A stretch of DNA of 64,000 bases from Patescibacteria group bacterium (GTDB lineage: Bacteria; Patescibacteriota; Patescibacteriia; JAXHNJ01). Of this stretch, positions 3,067-60,979 are shown piece by piece. The notes under the pieces are model-generated. The model saw only the letters and a program-made list of their open reading frames with translations. It ran no database searches and was not told the origin of the DNA. How positions within the stretch are numbered: position 1 is the first letter of the stretch; the number at the start of each line of letters is the position of its first letter. Both the position numbers and the translations under genes were made by a program. The DNA lies in assembly GCA_041649715.1 (NCBI GenBank), contig JBAZMP010000003.1:167690-231689 (forward strand). The letters are read 5' to 3'.

Positions 3067-3411
3067 TTATTTCTTTACAATTTTATGCGGATGATATTTT
3101 TCCACGTAGTAAATCTGTCTATCAATTTCTTCAAACGAAAAATCTGCCCCGTCTGTGACAATCAGTTTTATTTCCCCGTCATTTTCCCTTAAAACCACGG
3201 CGATAACTATTCCGTCAAAATTAACCAGAGGCTTATCCGGTCCCAAAATATAGGCATCAATTTCTTCCCCGTCAGCTTCCGACTTCGTTCCGGGAATAAA
3301 ACCGTAATTAGTTTGATACTTATTCTGCGGATAATCGGGATGCGCCGAATTTAAGGGCCGGTCGATAGCCACTTTCACCTTTTTTCCTAACCACTGTTTA
3401 TAATTATCCAT
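3067..3411 (-). CDS. inorganic pyrophosphatase-like protein, N-terminally short (matches only C-terminal half of family I PPase)
   Basis: EADGEEIDAYILGP (cf. DGDPLDVLVL), IVIAVVLRENDGEIKLIV, EEIDRQIYYVEKYHP (cf. EIEHFFEHYK); start placed at MDNYKQ with AAGGGGAA SD, abutting stop of upstream gene. Confidence 0.45.
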   Translation of the reverse strand: MDNYKQWLGKKVKVAIDRPLNSAHPDYPQNKYQTNYGFIPGTKSEADGEEIDAYILGPDKPLVNFDGIVIAVVLRENDGEIKLIVTDGADFSFEEIDRQIYYVEKYHPHKIVKK

Positions 3412-3412
3412 A

Positions 3413-4066
3413 TTATTTCCCCTTTTCCTTCCCCCAACAAACAATCAGGGCGTGAAATTCATTATATAATTTGTAAGACTTCGGCAATCGTTTTTCAAAA
3501 TATTCTTTATATTCATTATAAGTTTTAAATTCAACGCCGTACTTTTTACACAGTCTTCGGGTATAGGCGTCGATGACAAAGGAAGGCTTTCCGCCTGCGT
3601 ATAATAAAATTGAATCGGCTGTTTCCGGACCGATGCCGTGGACCGCCAATAATTCCTCGCGGCATTTTTTTAATGGTTTCTTAAAGAACTTTTTTAGACT
3701 GCCTTGATAATTTTCCATAAGCCATAAACTATACGCCTTAAGCTTTTTGGCTTTTTCATTATAATAGCCCGAGGAGCGAATCAACCCCCTTAATTTAATT
3801 GGCGAAATATTCAATATTTTTCTCGGAGACAATATTCTTTCCTTTTTAAGTTTATAAATGGCACGCTCCACGTTTCCCCAATTCGTATTCTGGGTTAATA
3901 TCGCCCCCAGACAGACTTCAAACATATTTTTCTCATTATTGACACATATTTTCTTTCTCAATATCTTATCCTCTTGATCTCTCGATATCTTTATATCTAG
4001 CACCGGCCACCAATCCTGGCGTCCGTATTTTTTCGACAAACTCAGATAAATCTTGATTAAATTCAT
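3413..4066 (-). CDS. HhH-GPD superfamily DNA glycosylase (endonuclease III / MagIII-like, no Fe-S cysteine cluster)
   Basis: Helix-hairpin-helix LLAVHGIGPETADSILLYA followed by catalytic Asp (VIDAY); no C-terminal 4-Cys motif. Confidence 0.7.
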   Translation of the reverse strand: MNLIKIYLSLSKKYGRQDWWPVLDIKISRDQEDKILRKKICVNNEKNMFEVCLGAILTQNTNWGNVERAIYKLKKERILSPRKILNISPIKLRGLIRSSGYYNEKAKKLKAYSLWLMENYQGSLKKFFKKPLKKCREELLAVHGIGPETADSILLYAGGKPSFVIDAYTRRLCKKYGVEFKTYNEYKEYFEKRLPKSYKLYNEFHALIVCWGKEKGK

Positions 4067-8440: not shown

Positions 8441-9217
8441 TTAAATCTTAAAAAATCCTTCCGCGTTCTTTCCCGTCTGCTCAACCACTTTTTCCACCGG
8501 AATATTTTTCAATTCAGCGATTTTCTTGGCCACTTCGACAACGTATATCGGCTCGCAACGTTTGCCGCGATACGCCTGAGGCGCCAAATAAGGCGCATCG
8601 GTTTCTATAAACATCTTTTCTAATGGCACCTCTTTTACCACGGAAAAGAGTTCTTGGTCATCGGTAAAAGTGATAATGCCGGTAAACCCCAAGTAAAAGC
8701 CCAGAGCCAACAAACGTCGGGCAATTTCGCGGGAAGACAAAAAGCAATGGACGACCGCCGGAATCTCTTCTTCTTCTTTCATCAATGCGATCAGATCCTC
8801 ATAAGCGTCCCGGCAGTGCAAAATCACCGGCACGCCCGCTTGTCTGGCCACGCCCAAATGTTTCTTCAAAAGCTCTTTCTGCCCTTCTTTGGCTCTTGCT
8901 TCTTCTTCTTTGGACTCCGCCCACATCTGGTAATAATCCAAGCCCGTTTCCCCGACGGCCACCACTTTATTATCTTTGGCCAGTTTCAAATATTCTTCCG
9001 GCGAGAATTCTTCGTCATTGATATGGGTCGGGTGCAGACCGACGGCCCCAAAAACAAAATCAAACTCATGGGACATATCAGCGGCTTTTTTACTGTTTTG
9101 CATCTGCGAACCGACCGTTATCACCTTCATCCCTTTTTCTTGACAACGCTTGGCCACCTCACGATAATCTTTCTCAAAAGCCTCGAAATTTAAATGACAA
9201 TGGGTGTCTATTAGCAT
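8441..9217 (-). CDS. tatD: TatD-family metal-dependent hydrolase/DNase
   Basis: MLIDTHCHL N-terminus, conserved His/Asp/Glu metal ligands (HCF, ETDAPYL). Confidence 0.8.
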   Translation of the reverse strand: MLIDTHCHLNFEAFEKDYREVAKRCQEKGMKVITVGSQMQNSKKAADMSHEFDFVFGAVGLHPTHINDEEFSPEEYLKLAKDNKVVAVGETGLDYYQMWAESKEEEARAKEGQKELLKKHLGVARQAGVPVILHCRDAYEDLIALMKEEEEIPAVVHCFLSSREIARRLLALGFYLGFTGIITFTDDQELFSVVKEVPLEKMFIETDAPYLAPQAYRGKRCEPIYVVEVAKKIAELKNIPVEKVVEQTGKNAEGFFKI

Positions 9218-26957: not shown

Positions 26958-29900
26958 TTAGACCACAAAACCGATTCTTAGATCCTTTCCTTCAATTTTC
27001 AGGTCTTTATAAAAAGACAACTTCTCCAATTCTTCCTTTTTCCCCTCAATAATATCAGAGGCCAGTATCTCTTGCTTGAGTTTTTCCCCATAAACCGCCA
27101 AAAGTTTATCAAAAAATCCGGAGGCAGCGGCATATTTCAGCTTGATCCGGTTGCCCGGCGTCAATTTTGCTTCTTTACGCAAAGAATTTATTTGCCTTAT
27201 CAATTCCCTGACTATTCCCTCCTCCCTTAATTCATCGGTTAAAGTGATGTCGAGCGCCACCCAAAAACCGTAACTTTCTTTTACCTTGAACTCGCTACCT
27301 GCGGGTTTTGTTTTTCCCAGATGGATTTCTCTCACATTAAGCTCCTCGGCGATTATTTTTAATAATTTCTCGTCTAGATTCTTCGCGTTGGAAACAAGTG
27401 AAGTTAAAGGCTGCCGGACCTTAAAACCGTTTTCCGCCCGCAAGGCATGACCGGCTTCGACTATCTGCCGAACCAAAATCATGTCATTTATCACCGACTT
27501 TTCGATCTCCCTGTCTAACCCCGGCCAATCAGCTAAGTGTACCGACTCCTTCACTCCGCCGGTGGCCTGATAAAGTTCTTCCGCCAGAAAAGGCGTGAAA
27601 GGCGCCATCATCTTGCTCAATGTCAATAAAACATCCTCAAGCGTCGACAACGCTTCATTTTTTTCCGCTTCTGCGGCGCCCTTAAACCGGTTTCGGCTGC
27701 GCCGCAAATACCAGGTGGATAAATCATTGATAAAGACCTCCATCTTCCGGACCGCGTTCACTATCTCGTAATGCTCCAAATCTTTTGTCACTTCTTCAAT
27801 CAACAAATGAAGAGAGGTTAAAATCCAGATATCGAGGACATTTTTGCTTTCTATTGGCTTAACTTCGGTTCCGGCGTACATCTGGTAAAAACTTAAAACA
27901 TTAAAAAGAACCAAGAAGTTTTTCTTAACCACTGATTCTACGCCGGAAGCGTCAAAATTTTTGGTTTCACCCGGCTGATTCAAAGAATAAAAATACCAGC
28001 GGATGGCATCCGCGCCGAATTTTTCGAAAATCTCTTGCGGGTTTACGACATTGCCGCGCGACTTCGACATCTTCTGACCGTTTTTATCCAGGACCAAACC
28101 TAAGCAGATGACATTTTTATAGGCCGGACCTTTATCTAAAAGAGTGGAAATAGCCAAAAGAGTGTAAAACCAGCCGCGCGTCTGATCCATTGCTTCGGAA
28201 ATAAAATCCGCCGGAAAACCCGTCCCTTTATCAATCTTTTCCTTGTTCTCAAAGGGATAATGGACTTGAGCGAAGGGCATAGAACCGGAATCAAACCAGC
28301 AATCAATCACTTCCGGCACCCGCTTCATTTCCCCGCCGCATTCACAGAGAGCTTTTACCTGGTCCACAAACGGCCGGTGAAGATTTATTTCTTGTAATTC
28401 TGGATTTACGTAAAATACCCTTGGATCTGCCCCGGTTTTATGACCATAAATCTCCTTTATTGCCTGCGAAACGGAATAATGGCGCAAATAATCCGCGAAC
28501 ATGACAATCTGTGCCTGGTGAGTGACGCAAAGGACGTTATGCCCTTGGTATTTTTTGACTAAATTATCGGCAAAAACAACAATTCTTTTTTTAACGTCTT
28601 CAAACGACTCTCCGGCTTGGCTATGTTTTATCGTTAAAGCTTCGGGACTGGCCTTTTCCCGGTATGCCAAAAATCGGCGATAATCATGATCATTTTTAAT
28701 AAGCTCGTTATGGGTTTTTTCCTCCCATGACCCCTCAAATATTTCATTAAGATCCTTATCCTCAATAATTTTCACTTTCAGGGATCGATTGATTATTTCC
28801 GCTGTTTGTTTGGCCCTTAAAGTCGGCGAGGTAAAGATGATATCAATATTTTTTCCCGCTAACTGCTGGGCATAATTTTCCGCTTGTTTTTTGCCTAAGG
28901 CAGTGAGAGGATATTTATCCGGGGCCGAACTGTCAATCCCTTTTACATTTTTTTCGCTTTCGGCGTGGCGAACCAAAATCAATTTTGTCGGTTTTTCTGC
29001 CGCCTTTAGCCTTAATTCCTCCCGGGAACCGAAACACTGATATTTGTGACATTTTTCGCACTGCCAGACAGGCAAGGGCGTACCCCAATAGCGTTCGCGG
29101 CTGATAGCCCAATCTTTTACCTCGTTAATCCACTCGCCAAAGCGGCCTTCTTTAATATAGTCCGGCACCCAATTAATTTTTTCATTATTCTTTTTTAGCT
29201 TTTCTCGTAAAGCCGACATCTTAATAAACCAGGAATTCTTGGCGTAATAAAGCAGGGGCGAATCGCAGCGCCAGCAAAAAGGGTAATCATGGGTATATTT
29301 TTCCGTTTTATAAAGAAGATTTTTTTTCTTCAAATAATCGATGATCTCCTCTTCCAGTTTTTTATCTTTTACAAATCTCCCCTGCCAGGGTTTTACCAAG
29401 GAGTTAAAAATGCCATTCTCATCTAGGGTATGAATTTTCGGCAGGCCGATTTTCTCGCCTAAGTTATAATCGTCTTCCCCATACATCACGGCGGTGTGTA
29501 CCACGCCTGTTCCGTCTTCGACGGTGACAAAATCGGCGAGAGTCAAATAATAAGCCTTTTTGCCCCCTTCTTTTTCTAGATCAAGAAAATCAAATAAGGG
29601 CTTGTATTTTTTCCCTTCCAGCTCTTTTGCCGAGTACTCTTTTATCACCTCGTGATCACCCTGCAAAACATTTAACCGATCTTTGGCTAAAATAAGGAAC
29701 TCATTTCCCTGTCTGATTTTTACATACTTAAAGGACTCACCTAGGGCCAGGGCGACATTGCCCGGCAAAGTCCAGGGAGTAGTGGTCCAGGCTAAAACAA
29801 AAGTCCCGGGCTCATCAGCCAGTTCGAATTTAATATAAACCGAATCCTCGGTCACGGATTTGTACCCTTGGGCGACTTCATGCGAAGAAAGAGCCGTGCC

Positions 29901-30434
29901 ACAGCGCGGGCATTGGGGAACCACCTTATACCCCAAATACAATAATTTTTTATCCCAGACCTGCTTTAAGATCCACCAGACGCTTTCAATATAATCATTG
30001 TCGTAAGTGACATAAGGATATTCTAAATCCAGCCAAAAACCCAGACGTTTTGTCATTTCTTCCCATTCGGTTTTATATTTCCAAACATTTGAACGGCACT
30101 GATCATTGAATTTACCCAGACCGTATTTTTCAATCTGGGGCTTGCCGGAAATCTTAAGTTCCTTTTCCACTTCCAGCTCCACCGGCAATCCGTGCGTGTC
30201 CCAGCCGGCTTTTCGCTCCACGTAAAAGCCCCGCATGGTTTTGTAGCGCGGAATCACGTCCTTAAAGGCCCGGGCCAAAACATGATGAATGCCGGGTTTG
30301 CCGTTGGCGGTGGGCGGACCTTCAAAGAAAATAAAAGGATGACCTTTTTTCGTCTTTTCCAGGGTTTTCTTAAAAATATCCTTTTCTTCCCAGAATTTTA
30401 GGGTTTTCTTTTCTGCTTCCGGAAAATTTATCAT
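26958..30434 (-). CDS. ileS: isoleucyl-tRNA synthetase (type 2) with an inserted histidine-phosphatase (PGAM-like) domain
   Basis: HIGH PTANGKPGIHHV, editing domain, KMSKS KMSKSRGN, zinc knuckles WQCEKCHKYQC / CECGG; between them ~195 aa LILVRHAESEKN...VLCVTHQAQIV (RHG and second-His motifs of histidine phosphatase superfamily). Confidence 0.9.
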   Translation of the reverse strand: MINFPEAEKKTLKFWEEKDIFKKTLEKTKKGHPFIFFEGPPTANGKPGIHHVLARAFKDVIPRYKTMRGFYVERKAGWDTHGLPVELEVEKELKISGKPQIEKYGLGKFNDQCRSNVWKYKTEWEEMTKRLGFWLDLEYPYVTYDNDYIESVWWILKQVWDKKLLYLGYKVVPQCPRCGTALSSHEVAQGYKSVTEDSVYIKFELADEPGTFVLAWTTTPWTLPGNVALALGESFKYVKIRQGNEFLILAKDRLNVLQGDHEVIKEYSAKELEGKKYKPLFDFLDLEKEGGKKAYYLTLADFVTVEDGTGVVHTAVMYGEDDYNLGEKIGLPKIHTLDENGIFNSLVKPWQGRFVKDKKLEEEIIDYLKKKNLLYKTEKYTHDYPFCWRCDSPLLYYAKNSWFIKMSALREKLKKNNEKINWVPDYIKEGRFGEWINEVKDWAISRERYWGTPLPVWQCEKCHKYQCFGSREELRLKAAEKPTKLILVRHAESEKNVKGIDSSAPDKYPLTALGKKQAENYAQQLAGKNIDIIFTSPTLRAKQTAEIINRSLKVKIIEDKDLNEIFEGSWEEKTHNELIKNDHDYRRFLAYREKASPEALTIKHSQAGESFEDVKKRIVVFADNLVKKYQGHNVLCVTHQAQIVMFADYLRHYSVSQAIKEIYGHKTGADPRVFYVNPELQEINLHRPFVDQVKALCECGGEMKRVPEVIDCWFDSGSMPFAQVHYPFENKEKIDKGTGFPADFISEAMDQTRGWFYTLLAISTLLDKGPAYKNVICLGLVLDKNGQKMSKSRGNVVNPQEIFEKFGADAIRWYFYSLNQPGETKNFDASGVESVVKKNFLVLFNVLSFYQMYAGTEVKPIESKNVLDIWILTSLHLLIEEVTKDLEHYEIVNAVRKMEVFINDLSTWYLRRSRNRFKGAAEAEKNEALSTLEDVLLTLSKMMAPFTPFLAEELYQATGGVKESVHLADWPGLDREIEKSVINDMILVRQIVEAGHALRAENGFKVRQPLTSLVSNAKNLDEKLLKIIAEELNVREIHLGKTKPAGSEFKVKESYGFWVALDITLTDELREEGIVRELIRQINSLRKEAKLTPGNRIKLKYAAASGFFDKLLAVYGEKLKQEILASDIIEGKKEELEKLSFYKDLKIEGKDLRIGFVV

Positions 30435-34984: not shown

Positions 34985-35100
34985 GCTCTATTCGTTCTAT
35001 CGCCTTCGGGCTAGTACAAAGGATTAGAACGAGTGAACCGACAGAACGCCTAAAAAGATTACAACATACACGGGGATGCCAAAATTCGATAGAACGTTAA
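34985..35100. repeat. palindromic element copy B (TTCGTTCTATCGCC ... TTCGATAGAACGTT) spanning smpB-ssrA junction
   Basis: Left arm 34988-35000, right arm 35086-35099 lies inside tmRNA 5' region. Confidence 0.5.
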
Positions 35101-35462
35101 CAAGGTAAGCTATGCAAGCCGAGCCCGATGGAAACTCGCTAAAAGTCCGTCAAATGATAAGTGTCAAAAACTTATTCAGCAAACTAAGAGAAGCTTTTTC
35201 TCCTAAATTTGCTTTTGCTGCCGTTTAATTAACCGCAGCCATCTGTAAAAGCTGATACCTAATAGGCTCTTATGGGTGTCAAAATATTAGGCATGACTGA
35301 CCGGTTGTCTTGGCGGGTCAGTCGAGAGCACAAAAAGACTTTAGACTTTAAGGTTTTGTTTCTTTCCCACTTAGAGTCCGAACTAAAACCAAAGAAAACA
35401 CGCTTGTAGAATATTTTGCCTTTACTTTCTAGACGCGGGTGCAAGGCCCGCCATCTCCACCA
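35072..35462 (+). ncRNA. ssrA: tmRNA (SsrA)
   Basis: 5' GGGGATG pairs with 3' CATCTCC-ACCA giving a 7-bp acceptor stem with G3:U70 (alanine identity); T-arm GCGGG-TGCAAGG-CCCGC; ATTCGA D-loop-like motif; PK1-like TATGCAAGCCGAG; immediately downstream of smpB; candidate tag ORF ending ...KFAFAAV-TAA near 35200-35230 (uncertain). Confidence 0.75.
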
Positions 35463-39025: not shown

Positions 39026-39103
39026 TGGCGGACCCGACGAGATTCGAACTCGTGATCTCCTCCGTGACAGGGAGGCGTGTTAGGCCAGCTACACCACGGG
39101 TCC
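39026..39103 (-). tRNA. tRNA-Asp (anticodon GUC), CCA encoded
   Basis: Reverse complement GGACCCG-TG-GTGT-AGCTGGCCTA-ACAC-G-CCTCC-CTGTCAC-GGAGG-AGATC-ACGAG-TTCGAAT-CTCGT-CGGGTCC-G-CCA folds into canonical cloverleaf. Confidence 0.85.
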
Positions 39104-47457: not shown

Positions 47458-48948
47458 TTATTTGCCGTCTACCGCAGGTAGACGGCTTTTTATAAGTTTA
47501 AAAAATGCAAACATTATTAAATAAATTAAAAAGATAATCAAAACATTTAAATGACTGAAGCTTATAGCCGCCCAGGAATGATTGGCAAAAAAATGACATA
47601 GGCTAGTGATGTATTTTAATAATAAATAACAAAGCCAGAATAAAAGTTGGCCGATGGGCCAAAATATCAGGGAAACAAATGTGGCCGCCAAACCTAAAGT
47701 CAAAAGCAGGGAAAAAATCGGCAAGATCAAAACATTAGCCAGCGGCGAGATCAAAGAAATAATCTTGAAGTTATAAATAATGATCGGCAGAGTAAAAACC
47801 TGGGCAGACAAAGTCATAACCAACGAGCTTTTTATTTCTAAAAGTTCCGGGAGGAATTTCAATATTTTCTCCAACCAAGGCGAAATATATATTAAACCCA
47901 AAACCGCCAAAAAAGAAAGCTGAAAGCCGACATCGTGCTTTAAAAGCTGGGGGTTAAATAAAAGCATTGCCACGGCGGCTAAGATTATGGCATTAAGACT
48001 GTGGTTTAACCTGCCCAAAGACATGGCCCACAAGACCAAAAAAGCCATAACAGACGCCCTGACCGCCGAAGCCGGCAAGCCGATCAATACGGTAAATAAA
48101 AAGAGAACCGCGCTCGCCAGCCAAAAAGCCTGTTTTCTTCTTAAGCCGATTGCTAAAGAGAAATTCATTAAAAGCCCGGCGATAATGGTCATGTTCTGGC
48201 CGGAAATCGCCATGATATGCGTGATCCCCGTGCGGGAAAAATCTGCGGCGACCGCGGCCGGCAATTTTGTCTTAATGCCAAACGACAAGGCTGCAAAAAA
48301 TGAGCTTTCCGGCTCCGGTATTCCCCTTTTTATGCTTTCGGCGAATTTTTCTTTCACGGAGTAAATTACTTCTAAAAAAGCATTGCCCTGATAAACGGCC
48401 AATTTTTCAATCCTGGGCTTATAACTGACCAGGTATATTTTGAAACGGGCCAAATAAGCTGGATAATCAAAATCTTGGATTTTTTCCGGCCTTTGGATTT
48501 TACCGCTCACTTTAACCAGATCACCGTATTGATAGACCGGATTCAAATCGCTGGTAATCAAAAAATTCAGGCCGATCAATTCAGGAGGCCCTAACTTAAT
48601 TTTCACTTTGATTTTTCTTATCTGTTCGCTTTCCTCGGTTTCCTCGTAAACCAAACCGGTGATTTCAATTTTTTCCTTTAACAAATCTTCCGGAATAATC
48701 GGCTCTTCGGATATGCTCAATGTATAGCGGCCCAGCCCTAATATGATAAATAAAAAACAAAAACCTGCGATTTTTATTTTTCGCACCGGCCAAAAAAATA
48801 TCAAGATAATTAAAGTCAGAACAAGCGCCATGAATATATAATAAATGGAAACGGCGAAAAATGACCGGCCGGCAATTCCGGCGATAAAGGAAATAAGAAA
48901 TAAAAGAAATATTTTTGATTTAGAAAAATAATTCATTAATAAGCTCAT
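47458..48948 (-). CDS. comEC: ComEC/Rec2 competence membrane channel, N-terminal (DUF4131 + competence domain) module
   Basis: Polytopic membrane protein with conserved MAISGQNMTIIAG and SAVRASVMA competence-domain motifs; 5' end overlaps tnpA stop by 29 nt so true start may be an internal Met. Confidence 0.7.
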   Translation of the reverse strand: MSLLMNYFSKSKIFLLFLISFIAGIAGRSFFAVSIYYIFMALVLTLIILIFFWPVRKIKIAGFCFLFIILGLGRYTLSISEEPIIPEDLLKEKIEITGLVYEETEESEQIRKIKVKIKLGPPELIGLNFLITSDLNPVYQYGDLVKVSGKIQRPEKIQDFDYPAYLARFKIYLVSYKPRIEKLAVYQGNAFLEVIYSVKEKFAESIKRGIPEPESSFFAALSFGIKTKLPAAVAADFSRTGITHIMAISGQNMTIIAGLLMNFSLAIGLRRKQAFWLASAVLFLFTVLIGLPASAVRASVMAFLVLWAMSLGRLNHSLNAIILAAVAMLLFNPQLLKHDVGFQLSFLAVLGLIYISPWLEKILKFLPELLEIKSSLVMTLSAQVFTLPIIIYNFKIISLISPLANVLILPIFSLLLTLGLAATFVSLIFWPIGQLLFWLCYLLLKYITSLCHFFANHSWAAISFSHLNVLIIFLIYLIMFAFFKLIKSRLPAVDGK

Positions 48949-49519
48949 TATTTAAATATAAATGAGGATATCTCGAATATTTGCCGGGCAAACCATGCTT
49001 TTCATAATTATATTTGATGTATTGAAGAATGTTATACAATCGTTTTTCGTTATCAATGATGCGGAAGTTGTAACGCGATTGCCAAAGCTCGGCAACATGA
49101 ATTTGGCGTGAAAAATTTCCTTTAATAGACTGCATCAAATCGGAAATGGTGTATCCGCGCGGGCTAGAAAGCCCGCGCTGTTTTTCTGGAAAAAGCCCGC
49201 GCTGTGGTAACGAGGAAGACTCACGCCGTATGTATGGGTAAAAACCGTGCGATGCAAAACAAAAAAAAGTCTCACCTTCCGTCCCACAGCGCGCCTTTTC
49301 TAAGGCGCGCCCGCCGTTCTTCACCAATAAATGCAAATGATCGGGCAAAATACAAAAAGCGTACAAATTAAAACCCTTTATCCTGCCTGCTTCAATGATA
49401 ATTTGATACAGAAGCTGGGCGTATTTTTCATTATCAAAGAACCAAAATCGTTCTTCGATATTGGTGGTGATAAAATATGGCAAAATAACCTGGTATATCC
49501 TTCTTTGGGTCATAAACAA
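48920..49519 (-). mobile_element. tnpA: IS200/IS605-family (HUH Y1) transposase gene tnpA with ~57-codon in-frame insertion
   Basis: HUH motif LPDHLHLLV, C-terminal ELWQSRYNFRIID...YIKYNYEKHGL with catalytic Tyr; 199 aa versus ~140 typical. Confidence 0.7.
49155..49312. repeat. GC-rich palindromic (REP/MITE-like) element inserted in-frame within tnpA
   Basis: Hairpins CGCGGGCT-agaa-AGCCCGCG (+T5), direct repeat AGCCCGCGCTG x2, inverted GCCCGCGCTGTGG / CCACAGCGCGCC, CGCGCC-ttttctaa-GGCGCG; local GC ~60% within ~38% GC gene. Confidence 0.6.
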
Positions 49520-49593
49520 AAAAGCGGCCTTCTCTAAGCCACCGTATTATCTGTCTATATACTAATTTAAAATAGGATAAAAGTCAAACAATT

Positions 49594-50689
49594 TTATCTC
49601 TCTTTGTGGCGCAGATAGCTTTCAATAAAAGCGTCTAGTTCGCCGTCCAAAACTTTGTTCACGTCTTGAGTCTCATATTTCGTCCGGTGATCCTTGACCA
49701 TCTTATAGGGCTGCATGACATAGGAGCGGATCTGGTTGCCCCAGGCCGCTTCGTGAAATTCGCCTCTGATTTTTTGCTTTTCTTTTTGCTTCTCTTTTTC
49801 TTCCAACATCAAGAGCTTACTCTTTAATATTTTCAGGGCCATTTCCCGATTTTGCTTCTGGGAGCGCTCGTTCTGGCAGGAAACGGTGATCTTGGTCGGC
49901 AAATGGACGATCCGCACGGCCGAATAGGTTGTCTGCACGCTCTGGCCGCCGTGGCCGGAAGAAAGGAAAGTATCGATGCGCAGGTCCTTCGGGTCAATTT
50001 TTATTACTTCAATTTCGTCCAGCTCCGGAATCACCTCAACTAGGGCAAAAGAGGTGTGACGCATTTTTTCCGCGTCGTAAGGGGAAATTCTTACCAAACG
50101 ATGGACGCCATTTTCTGATTTCAAAAAACCAAAAGCATAATGGCCGATAATTTCAAAAGTAACGCTTTTTATGCCGGCTTCATTACCCACGGATTTATCT
50201 AATATTTTGACCAGCCAGCCTCTTTTCTCGCAAAACCTCAAATACATACGCAGCAAAATCGCCGCCCAGTCCTGGGCGTCCACCCCGCCGGTGCCGGCAT
50301 GAATCGCCACTATGGCATTCCGCTGATCGTATTTGCCGGCCAACAAAATAAAAAACTCCAGTCTATCGAACTGCTGCTGCAATGCCTTGTATTTTTTCTC
50401 AATATCCTTTTCTAGAGAATGGGCTTTTTCTTTGATTGCTTCATGAGACAAATTTAGCAACTCTTCAATCTCCTGATGGATATTATCCCAAGTGGCGATT
50501 TCTTTCTTTAACTCTTCAAATTGCCGGCTGATTTTCTCCGCCCTCTCCCTATCCTGCCAGAAATCTTTTTCCGCGACCTGGTATTCAAAATCTTTAAGTT
50601 GATCTCTTTTCTTTTCTAGGTCAAAGAAACCCCCTCGCCTGCTCGATTTTCAGGCTCAATGACTTTATTTGCTTGACGATATTTTCCAC
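49594..50689 (-). CDS. prfB: peptide chain release factor 2, with programmed +1 frameshift (join 50689..50624, 50622..49594)
   Basis: Frame-0 leader (GTG)ENIVKQIKSLSLKIEQARGFL-TGA with internal SD AGGGGG then CTT TGA C shift site; downstream frame gives RF2 (SPY variant of SPF motif, GGQ as GHGGQSV). Confidence 0.8.
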
Positions 50690-56665: not shown

Positions 56666-56795
56666 TTAAATAATAACAGTTTTTTAAATAATATTAGAGG
56701 AAAAAATTGATAATTTTCATACCAAATTCACAATTATGATTATACCAAAAAGAACCGTCTTCACAGCCATGGAAAAATTGCCCAGTCAACGAGAA

Positions 56796-56858
56796 GAGCG
56801 GATTCAGAATCCGCTCTTCTCCATCAAACGGATGGTAGGCTGATCAGCCTACCATCCA
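56796..56858. repeat. two adjacent perfect palindromes (GAGAAGAGCGGATT-cag-AATCCGCTCTTCTC; GGATGGTAGGCT-GATC-AGCCTACCATCC)
   Basis: 14-bp and 12-bp perfect stems 7 nt apart, between 56911 gene stop and htrA promoter; no adjacent T-run. Confidence 0.6.
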
Positions 56859-60254: not shown

Positions 60255-60455
60255 TGATTAAATCCTTTCGACCGAAGGCTTTTACTTAAGGTATCCTGGC
60301 TTACAGAGGATTGGCTCATCTTTCCCTTCCCCCCAACCTCCTTCCTAGACGGAAAGCGTTAGAAGTGGTTTAAAAGACTGGCTTCTCTGTTTACAGTGAC
60401 GGGATCGCGCCGGATTCACACCGGACTTCCCTTTTTCTTGGTCTTAACTTTCAAC
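60255..60455 (-). promoter_or_regulatory. cobalamin (AdoCbl) riboswitch with terminator-type expression platform
   Basis: Minus-strand RNA reads AAAAAGGGAAGTCCGGTGTGAATCCGGCGCGATCCCGTCACTGTAAACAG...GTAAGCCAGGATACCTTAAG (B12-box) followed by AAACCCT-loop-AGGGTTT-T7 terminator and SD AAAGGA before DUF4430 ATG. Confidence 0.7.
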
Positions 60456-60472
60456 CAAGAAATATTAAATTT

Positions 60473-60979
60473 TTAATATTCGATGCCTTTTCGGGCCCTT
60501 ACTCCCTGATTGAAGTAATGCTTGACGGCCCGCATTTCTGTGACTAAATCCGCTTGTTCAAGTATCTTACCACAGGCGCCTCGGCCTGTCAAAATAATTT
60601 CTGTGGATAAAGATTTACCCTTGATAAGCTTTAAAATATCCGCCGGGGCAATTAACTTGAGTTTGGCCGCGACATTTATTTCATCCAGTATCACCAGGTC
60701 AGATCTTCCTTCTTTGACCATCCGGCCGGCATAAGCCAGGGCCTCACGCGCCGCTTTCCGGTCTATGGCGCTCGGCCTGCTAAAATTAACAAAAGCCCGC
60801 CGGCCGAATTGTTTGACGGTTATGTTTTTGAATTTTTTTAACGCTTTGACCTCGCCAAAATCCCCTTTTTTCATGAACTGGATCAGGCAGACTTTTTTCC
60901 CCTGGCCCAAGGCCCTTAAGGCCTGCCCTAAAGCGGCCGTGGTCTTTCCCTTGCCGTCGCCGGTATAGACCTGGATCAT
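60473..60979 (-). CDS. btuR: cob(I)yrinic acid a,c-diamide / cob(I)alamin adenosyltransferase (CobA/BtuR family)
   Basis: [37 protein letters not shown] P-loop region. Confidence 0.8.
   Translation of the reverse strand: [168 protein letters not shown]

Follow-up and report, generated by a model that had tools for sequence, protein, structure and literature searches.

Why does a gene for a single-strand DNA enzyme carry, in frame and in the middle of its coding sequence, a GC-rich segment made of palindromes? The question is raised by a 64-kb stretch of DNA from a Patescibacteria genome (hereafter the window), in which a preliminary description had recognized an IS200/IS605-like insertion sequence (IS) gene, tnpA, that was interrupted by such a segment and abutted comEC. 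With a probability of about 0.72, we favor the reading that the gene is a vertically inherited REP-associated tyrosine transposase (RAYT, or TnpA_REP), that it harbors in a tolerant loop between strand β3 and helix αC an in-frame doublet of repetitive extragenic palindromes (REPs) resembling a REPIN, and that this doublet is present throughout the clade, its palindromes being kept as DNA. The gene and its catalytic motifs are the following:

48920..49513, minus strand: RAYT gene encoding a Y1 HUH enzyme of the TnpA_REP type, with the ATG at 49513 preferred over the listed TTG at 49519.
49322..49348, minus strand: HUH motif LPDHLHLLV on strand β3, with H63 invariant in the alignment and a strand at residues 61-68 in the AlphaFold2 (AF2) model.
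49007..49021, minus strand: catalytic tyrosine motif Y-I-K-Y-N, with Y167 and N171 invariant in 44 sequences.

The open reading frame (ORF) spans 48920..49519 on the minus strand, or 199 amino acids when counted from the TTG, and its likely start is the ATG at 49513, because homologues begin MTQRRIYQ. Both the HUH motif and the C-terminal tyrosine motif of the preliminary description were located in the ORF, as in an HUH/Y1 enzyme, and residues H61, H63, Y167 and N171 were conserved in the alignment of homologues. The native protein matched the Pfam family Y1_Tnp (PF01797) over residues 21-67 only, while deletion of the insert in silico produced a contiguous match to profile positions 13-120 of 121. 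Similarly, the NCBIfam model of REP-associated tyrosine transposases (NF047646 REP_Tyr_transpos), which has a curated equivalog cut-off of 80 bits, scored the native protein at 75.6 bits, split into two stretches, and the insert-deleted protein at 86.2 bits over profile positions 3-145 of 146. The IS200/IS605 TnpA model (NF033573) did not reach its cut-off of 55 bits with either form (18.6 bits native, 26.4 bits with the insert removed). A sequence search with the insert-deleted protein returned the E. coli TnpA_REP structure 4ER8 as its top match (E 1.9e-9), with an alignment unbroken over the excision point, and 4ER8 was again the top match in a fold search with Foldseek. By these comparisons the gene product is best classed as a RAYT/TnpA_REP and not as the IS200/IS605 transposase it had been taken for. 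An IS200/IS605 element with left and right ends (LE/RE) was also rejected, given that the model scores are too low and that there is no space for IS ends between prfB, 74 nt upstream, and comEC, which overlaps the 3' end. The window contains a single RAYT copy, whose C-terminus lies ~30 residues past the tyrosine motif, without a conserved C-terminal extension after the core. In the AF2 model, built with 44 homologues, the core had a predicted local distance difference test (pLDDT) score above 90, and residues 72-119, located between the HUH-bearing strand (61-68) and a helix (125-140), were unstructured, with pLDDT of 31-43. According to the model, the insert would be a disordered loop on the surface, and the HUH/Tyr fold would be undisturbed.

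The insert itself has a layered palindromic structure, with the following components:

49153..49314, minus strand: in-frame REP doublet (REPIN-like insert), translated as the predicted disordered loop, residues ~72-119.
49285..49314, minus strand: REP unit 1, the first on the coding strand, GCGCGCCTT-AGAA-AAGGCGCGC, encoding RALEKAR.
49153..49182, plus strand: REP unit 2, inverted with respect to unit 1, which on the coding strand reads GCGCGGGCT-TTCT-AGCCCGCGC and encodes QRGLSSPR.
49168..49205, no strand assigned: 24-nt (8-codon) tandem duplication of half a REP, with AAAGCCCGCGCTGT present twice.
49198..49293, no strand assigned: inner long inverted repeat, with arms CGCGCTGTGG/CCACAGCGCG at 49198-49207 and 49284-49293, extending inward.

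The two units form the hairpins GCGCGGGCT-AGAA-AGCCCGCGC (49157-49178), followed on the plus strand by the terminator-like T-run TGTTTTTCTG, and GCGCGCCTT-TTCT-AAGGCGCGC (49289-49310). R1, a covariance model constructed from the REP units, scored unit 1 at 34.8 bits (E 2.8e-6) and unit 2 at 36.3 bits (E 1.2e-6). The copies of the direct repeat AAAGCCCGCGCTGT lie 24 nt apart, at 49168-49181 and 49192-49205, and the inner inverted repeat allows the whole doublet to fold as one long hairpin. GC content is 0.50-0.55 across 49150-49349 versus 0.24-0.40 in the flanks, and folding of a 181-nt segment gave z = -4.5 on the minus strand and z = -4.1 on the plus strand, with none of 200 shuffles (0/200) equally stable. 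The GC-rich hairpins, the T-run and the inverted and direct repeats reported in the preliminary description are thus confirmed, and its estimate of ~57 extra codons is close to the ~50 that we count against the insert-less homologues P0036 and P0038. Rfam and tRNA scans detected nothing within the insert.

The homologues establish that the insert is a shared feature. A protein search retrieved 45 relatives, all annotated as Patescibacteria where named (P-numbers denote homologous proteins and L-numbers the DNA loci or genomes of relatives); the top match, P0001, is the same gene as that of the window, called with a later start. The insert occupies the same site, between strand β3 and helix αC, in ~40 Patescibacteria homologues down to ~35% identity, and is missing from P0036 and P0038. 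At the protein level it shows two conserved motifs, R-[TA]-L-E-[KSR]-[VA]-R and [QE]-R-[TG]-L-S-[SRK]-[VP]-R, which flank a middle of variable length. We compared the DNA of 41 family loci for hairpins. At nearly every locus the first motif corresponds to a palindrome with a 4-nt loop NGAR and the second to a palindrome with a loop YTCN, the YTCN-loop type being the reverse complement of the NGAR-loop type. Since the second palindrome of the doublet is the reverse complement of the first, the two peptide motifs are two readings of one palindrome, and the consensus peptides R-T-L-E-K-V-R and R-T-L-S-S-V-R are translated palindromes. All in-gene hairpins (57/57) lie in one codon phase. In that phase they encode hydrophilic peptides rich in Arg, Ser, Glu and Lys, and in the other phases peptides rich in Trp and Cys. 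Avoidance of stop codons was rejected as the sole cause of the constant phase, because the other two phases carry stops in only 2-10 of 23 units and are stop-free in more than half. Insert length and middle sequence vary among homologues. The 24-nt repeat is present in 2 copies in the window and 3 in L098, and the number of REP units also differs among close relatives; therefore, the array grows and shrinks in multiples of three bases. In L003 (3206-3265; identical to L077), a second GC-rich hairpin (CTGCCCGCC...GGCAGGCGGG) is nested in the loop of the first REP unit, still in frame.

Several patterns indicate that what is conserved is the palindrome as DNA. In 45 distinct units, which were chosen by a stem scan that biases the inner 7 pairs, 83% of the cells of the stems were paired versus 65% after shuffling, and the covariation score was 0.486 versus 0.177 for shuffled units, a value matched by 0/500 shuffles and falling to 0.06-0.13 when partners were slid. 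In a control in which sites were selected only by the loop and its closing pair, at least 8 of 12 stem positions were paired in 42/83 sites within inserts and in 20/1022 sites elsewhere. The encoded residues follow suit: residue pairs shift jointly as base pairing demands (T/V, A/A, G/P), and Leu encoded by TTR is paired with Lys or Asn (AAN) and Leu encoded by CTN with Ser or Arg (AGN). On the coding strand the mismatches of unit 1 are C.A, T.C and C.T, with G.T accounting for only 1/30, and those of unit 2 are T.G, G.A and A.G, the complement mirror of the first set. These mirror mismatches fit a DNA inverted repeat that shows the same imperfect hairpin on each strand, and not an mRNA structure. 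On this comparative evidence the conserved feature is the set of DNA palindromes, not a protein domain or a peptide. The extra residues do recur in TnpA homologues, which the preliminary description had itself named as grounds against its reading and which holds in part: site and phase are shared by ~40 of them; it is, however, palindromes and not a domain that they share.

Copies of these hairpins also occur beside the gene. Among the loci compared, extra copies were found within ~1.2 kb of the gene only, and most within 600 nt (L003, L004, L011, L016-L018, L084, L092 and L093), apart from one weaker hairpin 3.2 kb from the gene in L092. They appear as intergenic doublets upstream in L016, L017 and L018, as single units just before the start in L003, and, in L011, L092 and L084, as single units at the gene end or beyond it. 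The flank of the window holds one degenerate REP-like hairpin upstream, at 49523-49543, compared with clear flanking doublets in L016-L018, L003, L011 and L092. The extra copies of L016 and L018 exhibit a canonical 5' GTAG foot (GTAG-A-GGGCGGACT...) and a GGG/CCC stem base. In L016 two diverged RAYT paralogues (110-745 and 1758-2435) lie 1 kb apart, both with a REP doublet of their own inside the gene, and the stretch between them holds a GTAG-tagged doublet. In the Peribacteria locus L021, a distant RAYT without insert lies between two hairpins (2895-2916 and 3435-3456), the upstream one with a YTCN loop and the downstream one with an NGAR loop; to judge by these hairpins, the locus represents a classical REPtron that uses the same loop types.

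The genomic context of the gene speaks to its mode of inheritance. Its neighbors and leader are as follows:

47458..48948, minus strand: comEC, with both Pfam domains (DUF4131 and Competence) complete.
49594..50460, minus strand: prfB (main frame), the upstream neighbor, which ends 74 nt upstream of the RAYT ORF.
49523..49543, minus strand: hairpin GGTGGCTT-AGAG-AAGGCCGC followed by a T-run, directly before the ATG; terminator-like, with a REP-like apex, and conserved in L098 and L099.
49559..49587, minus strand: promoter-like TTGACT-17-TAGTAT upstream of the preceding hairpin, with TTGAC also found in L098 and L099.

The window has the order prfB-RAYT-comEC, and L098 and L099 have glmS in addition, in the order prfB-glmS-RAYT-comEC. 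Because this prfB-(glmS)-RAYT-comEC order is conserved in L098 and L099, the RAYT locus appears to be vertically inherited. The order gyrB-RAYT is likewise kept in L017 and L018. A general link between RAYT and comEC was rejected, given that comEC adjoins the gene only in the closest relatives. The overlap of the RAYT stop with comEC that had been put at 29 nt holds when comEC is read from the ATG at 48948 and shrinks to 17 nt from the conserved start, ATG 48936 (MNYFSKSK). The comEC frames of L098 and L099 reach upstream, in L098 through an unannotated N-terminus, to a conserved start, M-[NT]-YFSKSKIF, with the same 17-nt overlap (..NELFF* over MNYFSK..; window 48920-48936, L098 10743-10759, L099 about 8536-8552), and the RAYT C-terminus is conserved up to this point in all three genomes, whose RAYTs are only ~52% identical. 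Window ComEC and the L098 protein align without gaps. Since the start and the 17-nt overlap in L098 and L099 match ATG 48936, the overlap is, on comparative grounds, ancestral and comEC is not truncated. The earlier proposal that the element had truncated comEC or altered its expression is contradicted by the complete Pfam domains and by the N-terminus MNYFSKSKIF and 17-nt overlap kept in L098 and L099. The conserved overlap suggests translational coupling of an enzyme of single-strand DNA hairpins with a DNA-uptake channel.

The leader is also shared. In the window (49514-49590, minus strand), L098 (9886-10000) and L099 (7930-8000), a TTGAC-type site is followed by a hairpin GGTGGC...GCCGC and a T-run, and this conserved arrangement resembles a terminator or attenuator acting on the leader, and not solely one that ends the upstream gene. 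The prfB ORF begins with TTG, matches the PCRF profile only from position 56, and has an L098 homologue called at 362 aa, a pattern to be expected if prfB has the usual programmed +1 frameshift and its N-terminal part lies upstream in a different frame. RNA genes of the window at 35072-35462, 39026-39103 and 60274-60477 correspond to tmRNA, tRNA-Asp and a cobalamin riboswitch.

Taken as a history, one ancestral REP insertion in the RAYT clade of Patescibacteria would most likely have been followed by expansion and contraction in multiples of three bases. The palindromes would have been retained as DNA hairpins like those that, in single-stranded DNA, enzymes of this family bind and cleave. We infer that they represent the cognate REPs of the enzyme, placed within and beside its own gene and not kept as a protein domain or an mRNA structure.

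Five points weigh against this reading. The window provides no dispersed REP population: a hairpin scan of the 64 kb revealed no GC-rich hairpins of the same type beyond the two in the gene, and the covariance model recovered no copies but the two in the gene (36 and 35 bits), its next matches being unrelated palindromes at 56.8 kb. The window thus holds no further copy of the GC-rich element or of the putative IS, for both of which the preliminary description had proposed a search of the genome. Furthermore, the 5' GT[AG]G foot was not found on the REP units of the window. Selection on the peptide, instead of a single origin, could account for part of the constancy in codon phase. The bias in the choice of covariation units also counts, mitigated by the loop-only control. 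Finally, that the hairpins serve as substrates of this particular protein is a supposition taken from knowledge of the family.

The matches at 56792-56858 were set aside because they are two other perfect palindromes and not the same REP type. They are adjacent, intergenic, and located upstream of an HtrA-like gene. In L098 (9971-9991), a copy of one of them, AGAGCGGATTCAGAATCCGCTCT, that differs at one central base stands just before the RAYT start, where the window has nothing at the matching site; the other palindrome contains GTAG...CTAC. Together with the L098 copy they may represent a second, mobile REP-like family. An exact 13-mer match at 29899-29911 (GCCCGCGCTGTGG) falls within the CPRCG zinc motif of ileS and was dismissed as a chance match.

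An alternative that we consider unlikely is that the clade, part of the candidate phyla radiation (CPR), has a self-contained RAYT-REP system, in which the only cognate hairpins are those in or beside the RAYT gene and are selected as a cis-acting DNA site and not through REP spread. If true, the site might serve for self-nicking or for autoregulation at the time of replication, or it might control comEC, which would be translationally coupled to the RAYT.

It is rather unlikely that the hairpins act as RNA and control expression of RAYT and of comEC downstream, whether by terminating or attenuating transcription inside the gene, by offering an RNase III site or by making translation pause. 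The strong fold, the hairpin followed by a T-run on the plus strand, and the fact that REPs elsewhere act as RNA elements (Di Nocera 2013, PMC3733652) would be expected of such elements. However, unit 2 repeats unit 1 in reverse complement, mismatches included, so that the transcript would contain two different RNA structures, the near-absence of G.U among the mRNA-strand mismatches of unit 1 (1/30) is not the mark of an RNA stem, and the sole T-run terminator is on the antisense strand.

Selection for the peptide, as in a lineage-specific protein insertion with an interaction motif such as RTLEKVR...RTLSSVR whose palindromy is incidental, is quite improbable. The motifs are conserved and always in one phase, the one that is hydrophilic and not Trp/Cys-rich, which this explanation would account for. 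Against it, AF2 shows no structure in the insert, the conserved positions are exactly those of the palindromes, residue pairs covary in the way that base pairing demands, the same hairpins are also present in non-coding flanks, and insert length and middle sequence are unconserved.

We give very little credence to the view that the gene is a decaying relic in which REPs mark a dead transposase. Two relatives do look broken: L019 is frameshifted, and L009 carries an in-frame TGA within its REP. The frame is nevertheless intact in the window and most homologues, the four catalytic residues are conserved, the core is predicted with high confidence, and the C-terminus is conserved up to the comEC overlap. 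The L009 locus (3189-3240) carries just one REP unit at this site, the TGA lying in its loop, and is either a pseudogene or the gene of an organism that reads TGA as sense (code 25).

A recent chance insertion of a REP or a miniature inverted-repeat transposable element (MITE) into an IS200/IS605 tnpA, with the frame kept by luck and comEC disturbed, is the least credible account and largely refuted already: the segment is indeed REP-like palindromic DNA in frame, GC-rich and foreign-looking in an AT-rich gene, and its REP copy number varies among close relatives, but chance does not explain the same site and phase in ~40 homologues, the synteny and comEC overlap conserved in L098 and L099, a protein that scores as RAYT and not IS200, and the lack of any other copy in the window.

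The vertically inherited RAYT with its in-frame REP doublet is of broader significance. Patescibacteria have tiny genomes with almost no intergenic space, and many of the homologues show that the palindromes, and not the peptide, are conserved, through a single codon phase, compensatory stem changes and mirror-image mismatches. The clade therefore offers a clean natural data set for asking why a RAYT would retain REPs within its own coding sequence. There is also a lesson for annotation: genes of this kind score slightly under the cut-offs of RAYT models, and annotation will probably mistake them for IS200 transposases or disrupted genes.

Comparison with known systems places the locus more precisely. 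With the TnpA of IS200/IS605 it shares the HUH/Y1 superfamily (PF01797), but the window protein falls below the family cut-off and its gene is without subterminal-hairpin ends, tnpB, or multiple identical copies. In-frame REPs have been listed in other genes, recalling the Rickettsia palindromic elements (Di Nocera et al. 2013, PMC3733652). These, too, are in-frame palindromes of tens of residues, often dimers, in proteins that are likely functional; they are, however, scattered over many unrelated genes, and here the sole host gene is the RAYT. REPINs (Bertels and Rainey 2011, PMC3116915) similarly consist of two inverted REPs and a spacer that can fold as one long hairpin, but form large extragenic populations, of which none was seen in the 64 kb. 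The E. coli TnpA_REP/REPtron (4ER8; Corneloup et al. 2021, PMC8266576) resembles the window gene in fold and catalytic motifs, in being a single-copy syntenic gene, and in its imperfect palindromes in inverted pairs. TnpA_REP processes single-stranded cognate REPs and recognizes imperfect or perfect palindromes (Corneloup et al. 2021, PMC8266576). The REPs of E. coli are extragenic, high-copy and GTAG-tagged, in contrast to those described here, which lie inside the ORF with none dispersed in 64 kb.

The closest likeness is with subclass 2.4 of TnpA_REP (RAYT group 4), in which REPs lie inside tnpA_REP genes with the frame undisturbed and the insertion forms a peripheral extension in the model (Quentin, Siguier, Chandler, Fichant 2018, PMC6006769). 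There, as here, an in-frame insert of highly variable length and sequence, with short DNA repeats, occupies a peripheral position between β3 and αC, the protein has no C-terminal extension domain, and REPs also flank the gene, here clearly so in relatives and by one degenerate hairpin in the window. The differences lie in the host, which belongs to Patescibacteria, the description of subclass 2.4 having drawn mainly on Cyanobacteria and Bacteroidetes (PMC6006769); in the units of the window, which are without the 5' GTAG foot that only the relatives L016 and L018 have; in the doublet, which in this clade is universal and never departs from one codon phase; and in the apparent lack of dispersed copies in the 64 kb. 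In architecture the window gene matches the description of subclass 2.4 point for point, and the arrangement of a REP inside its own RAYT gene, already described for that one subclass, now extends to Patescibacteria.

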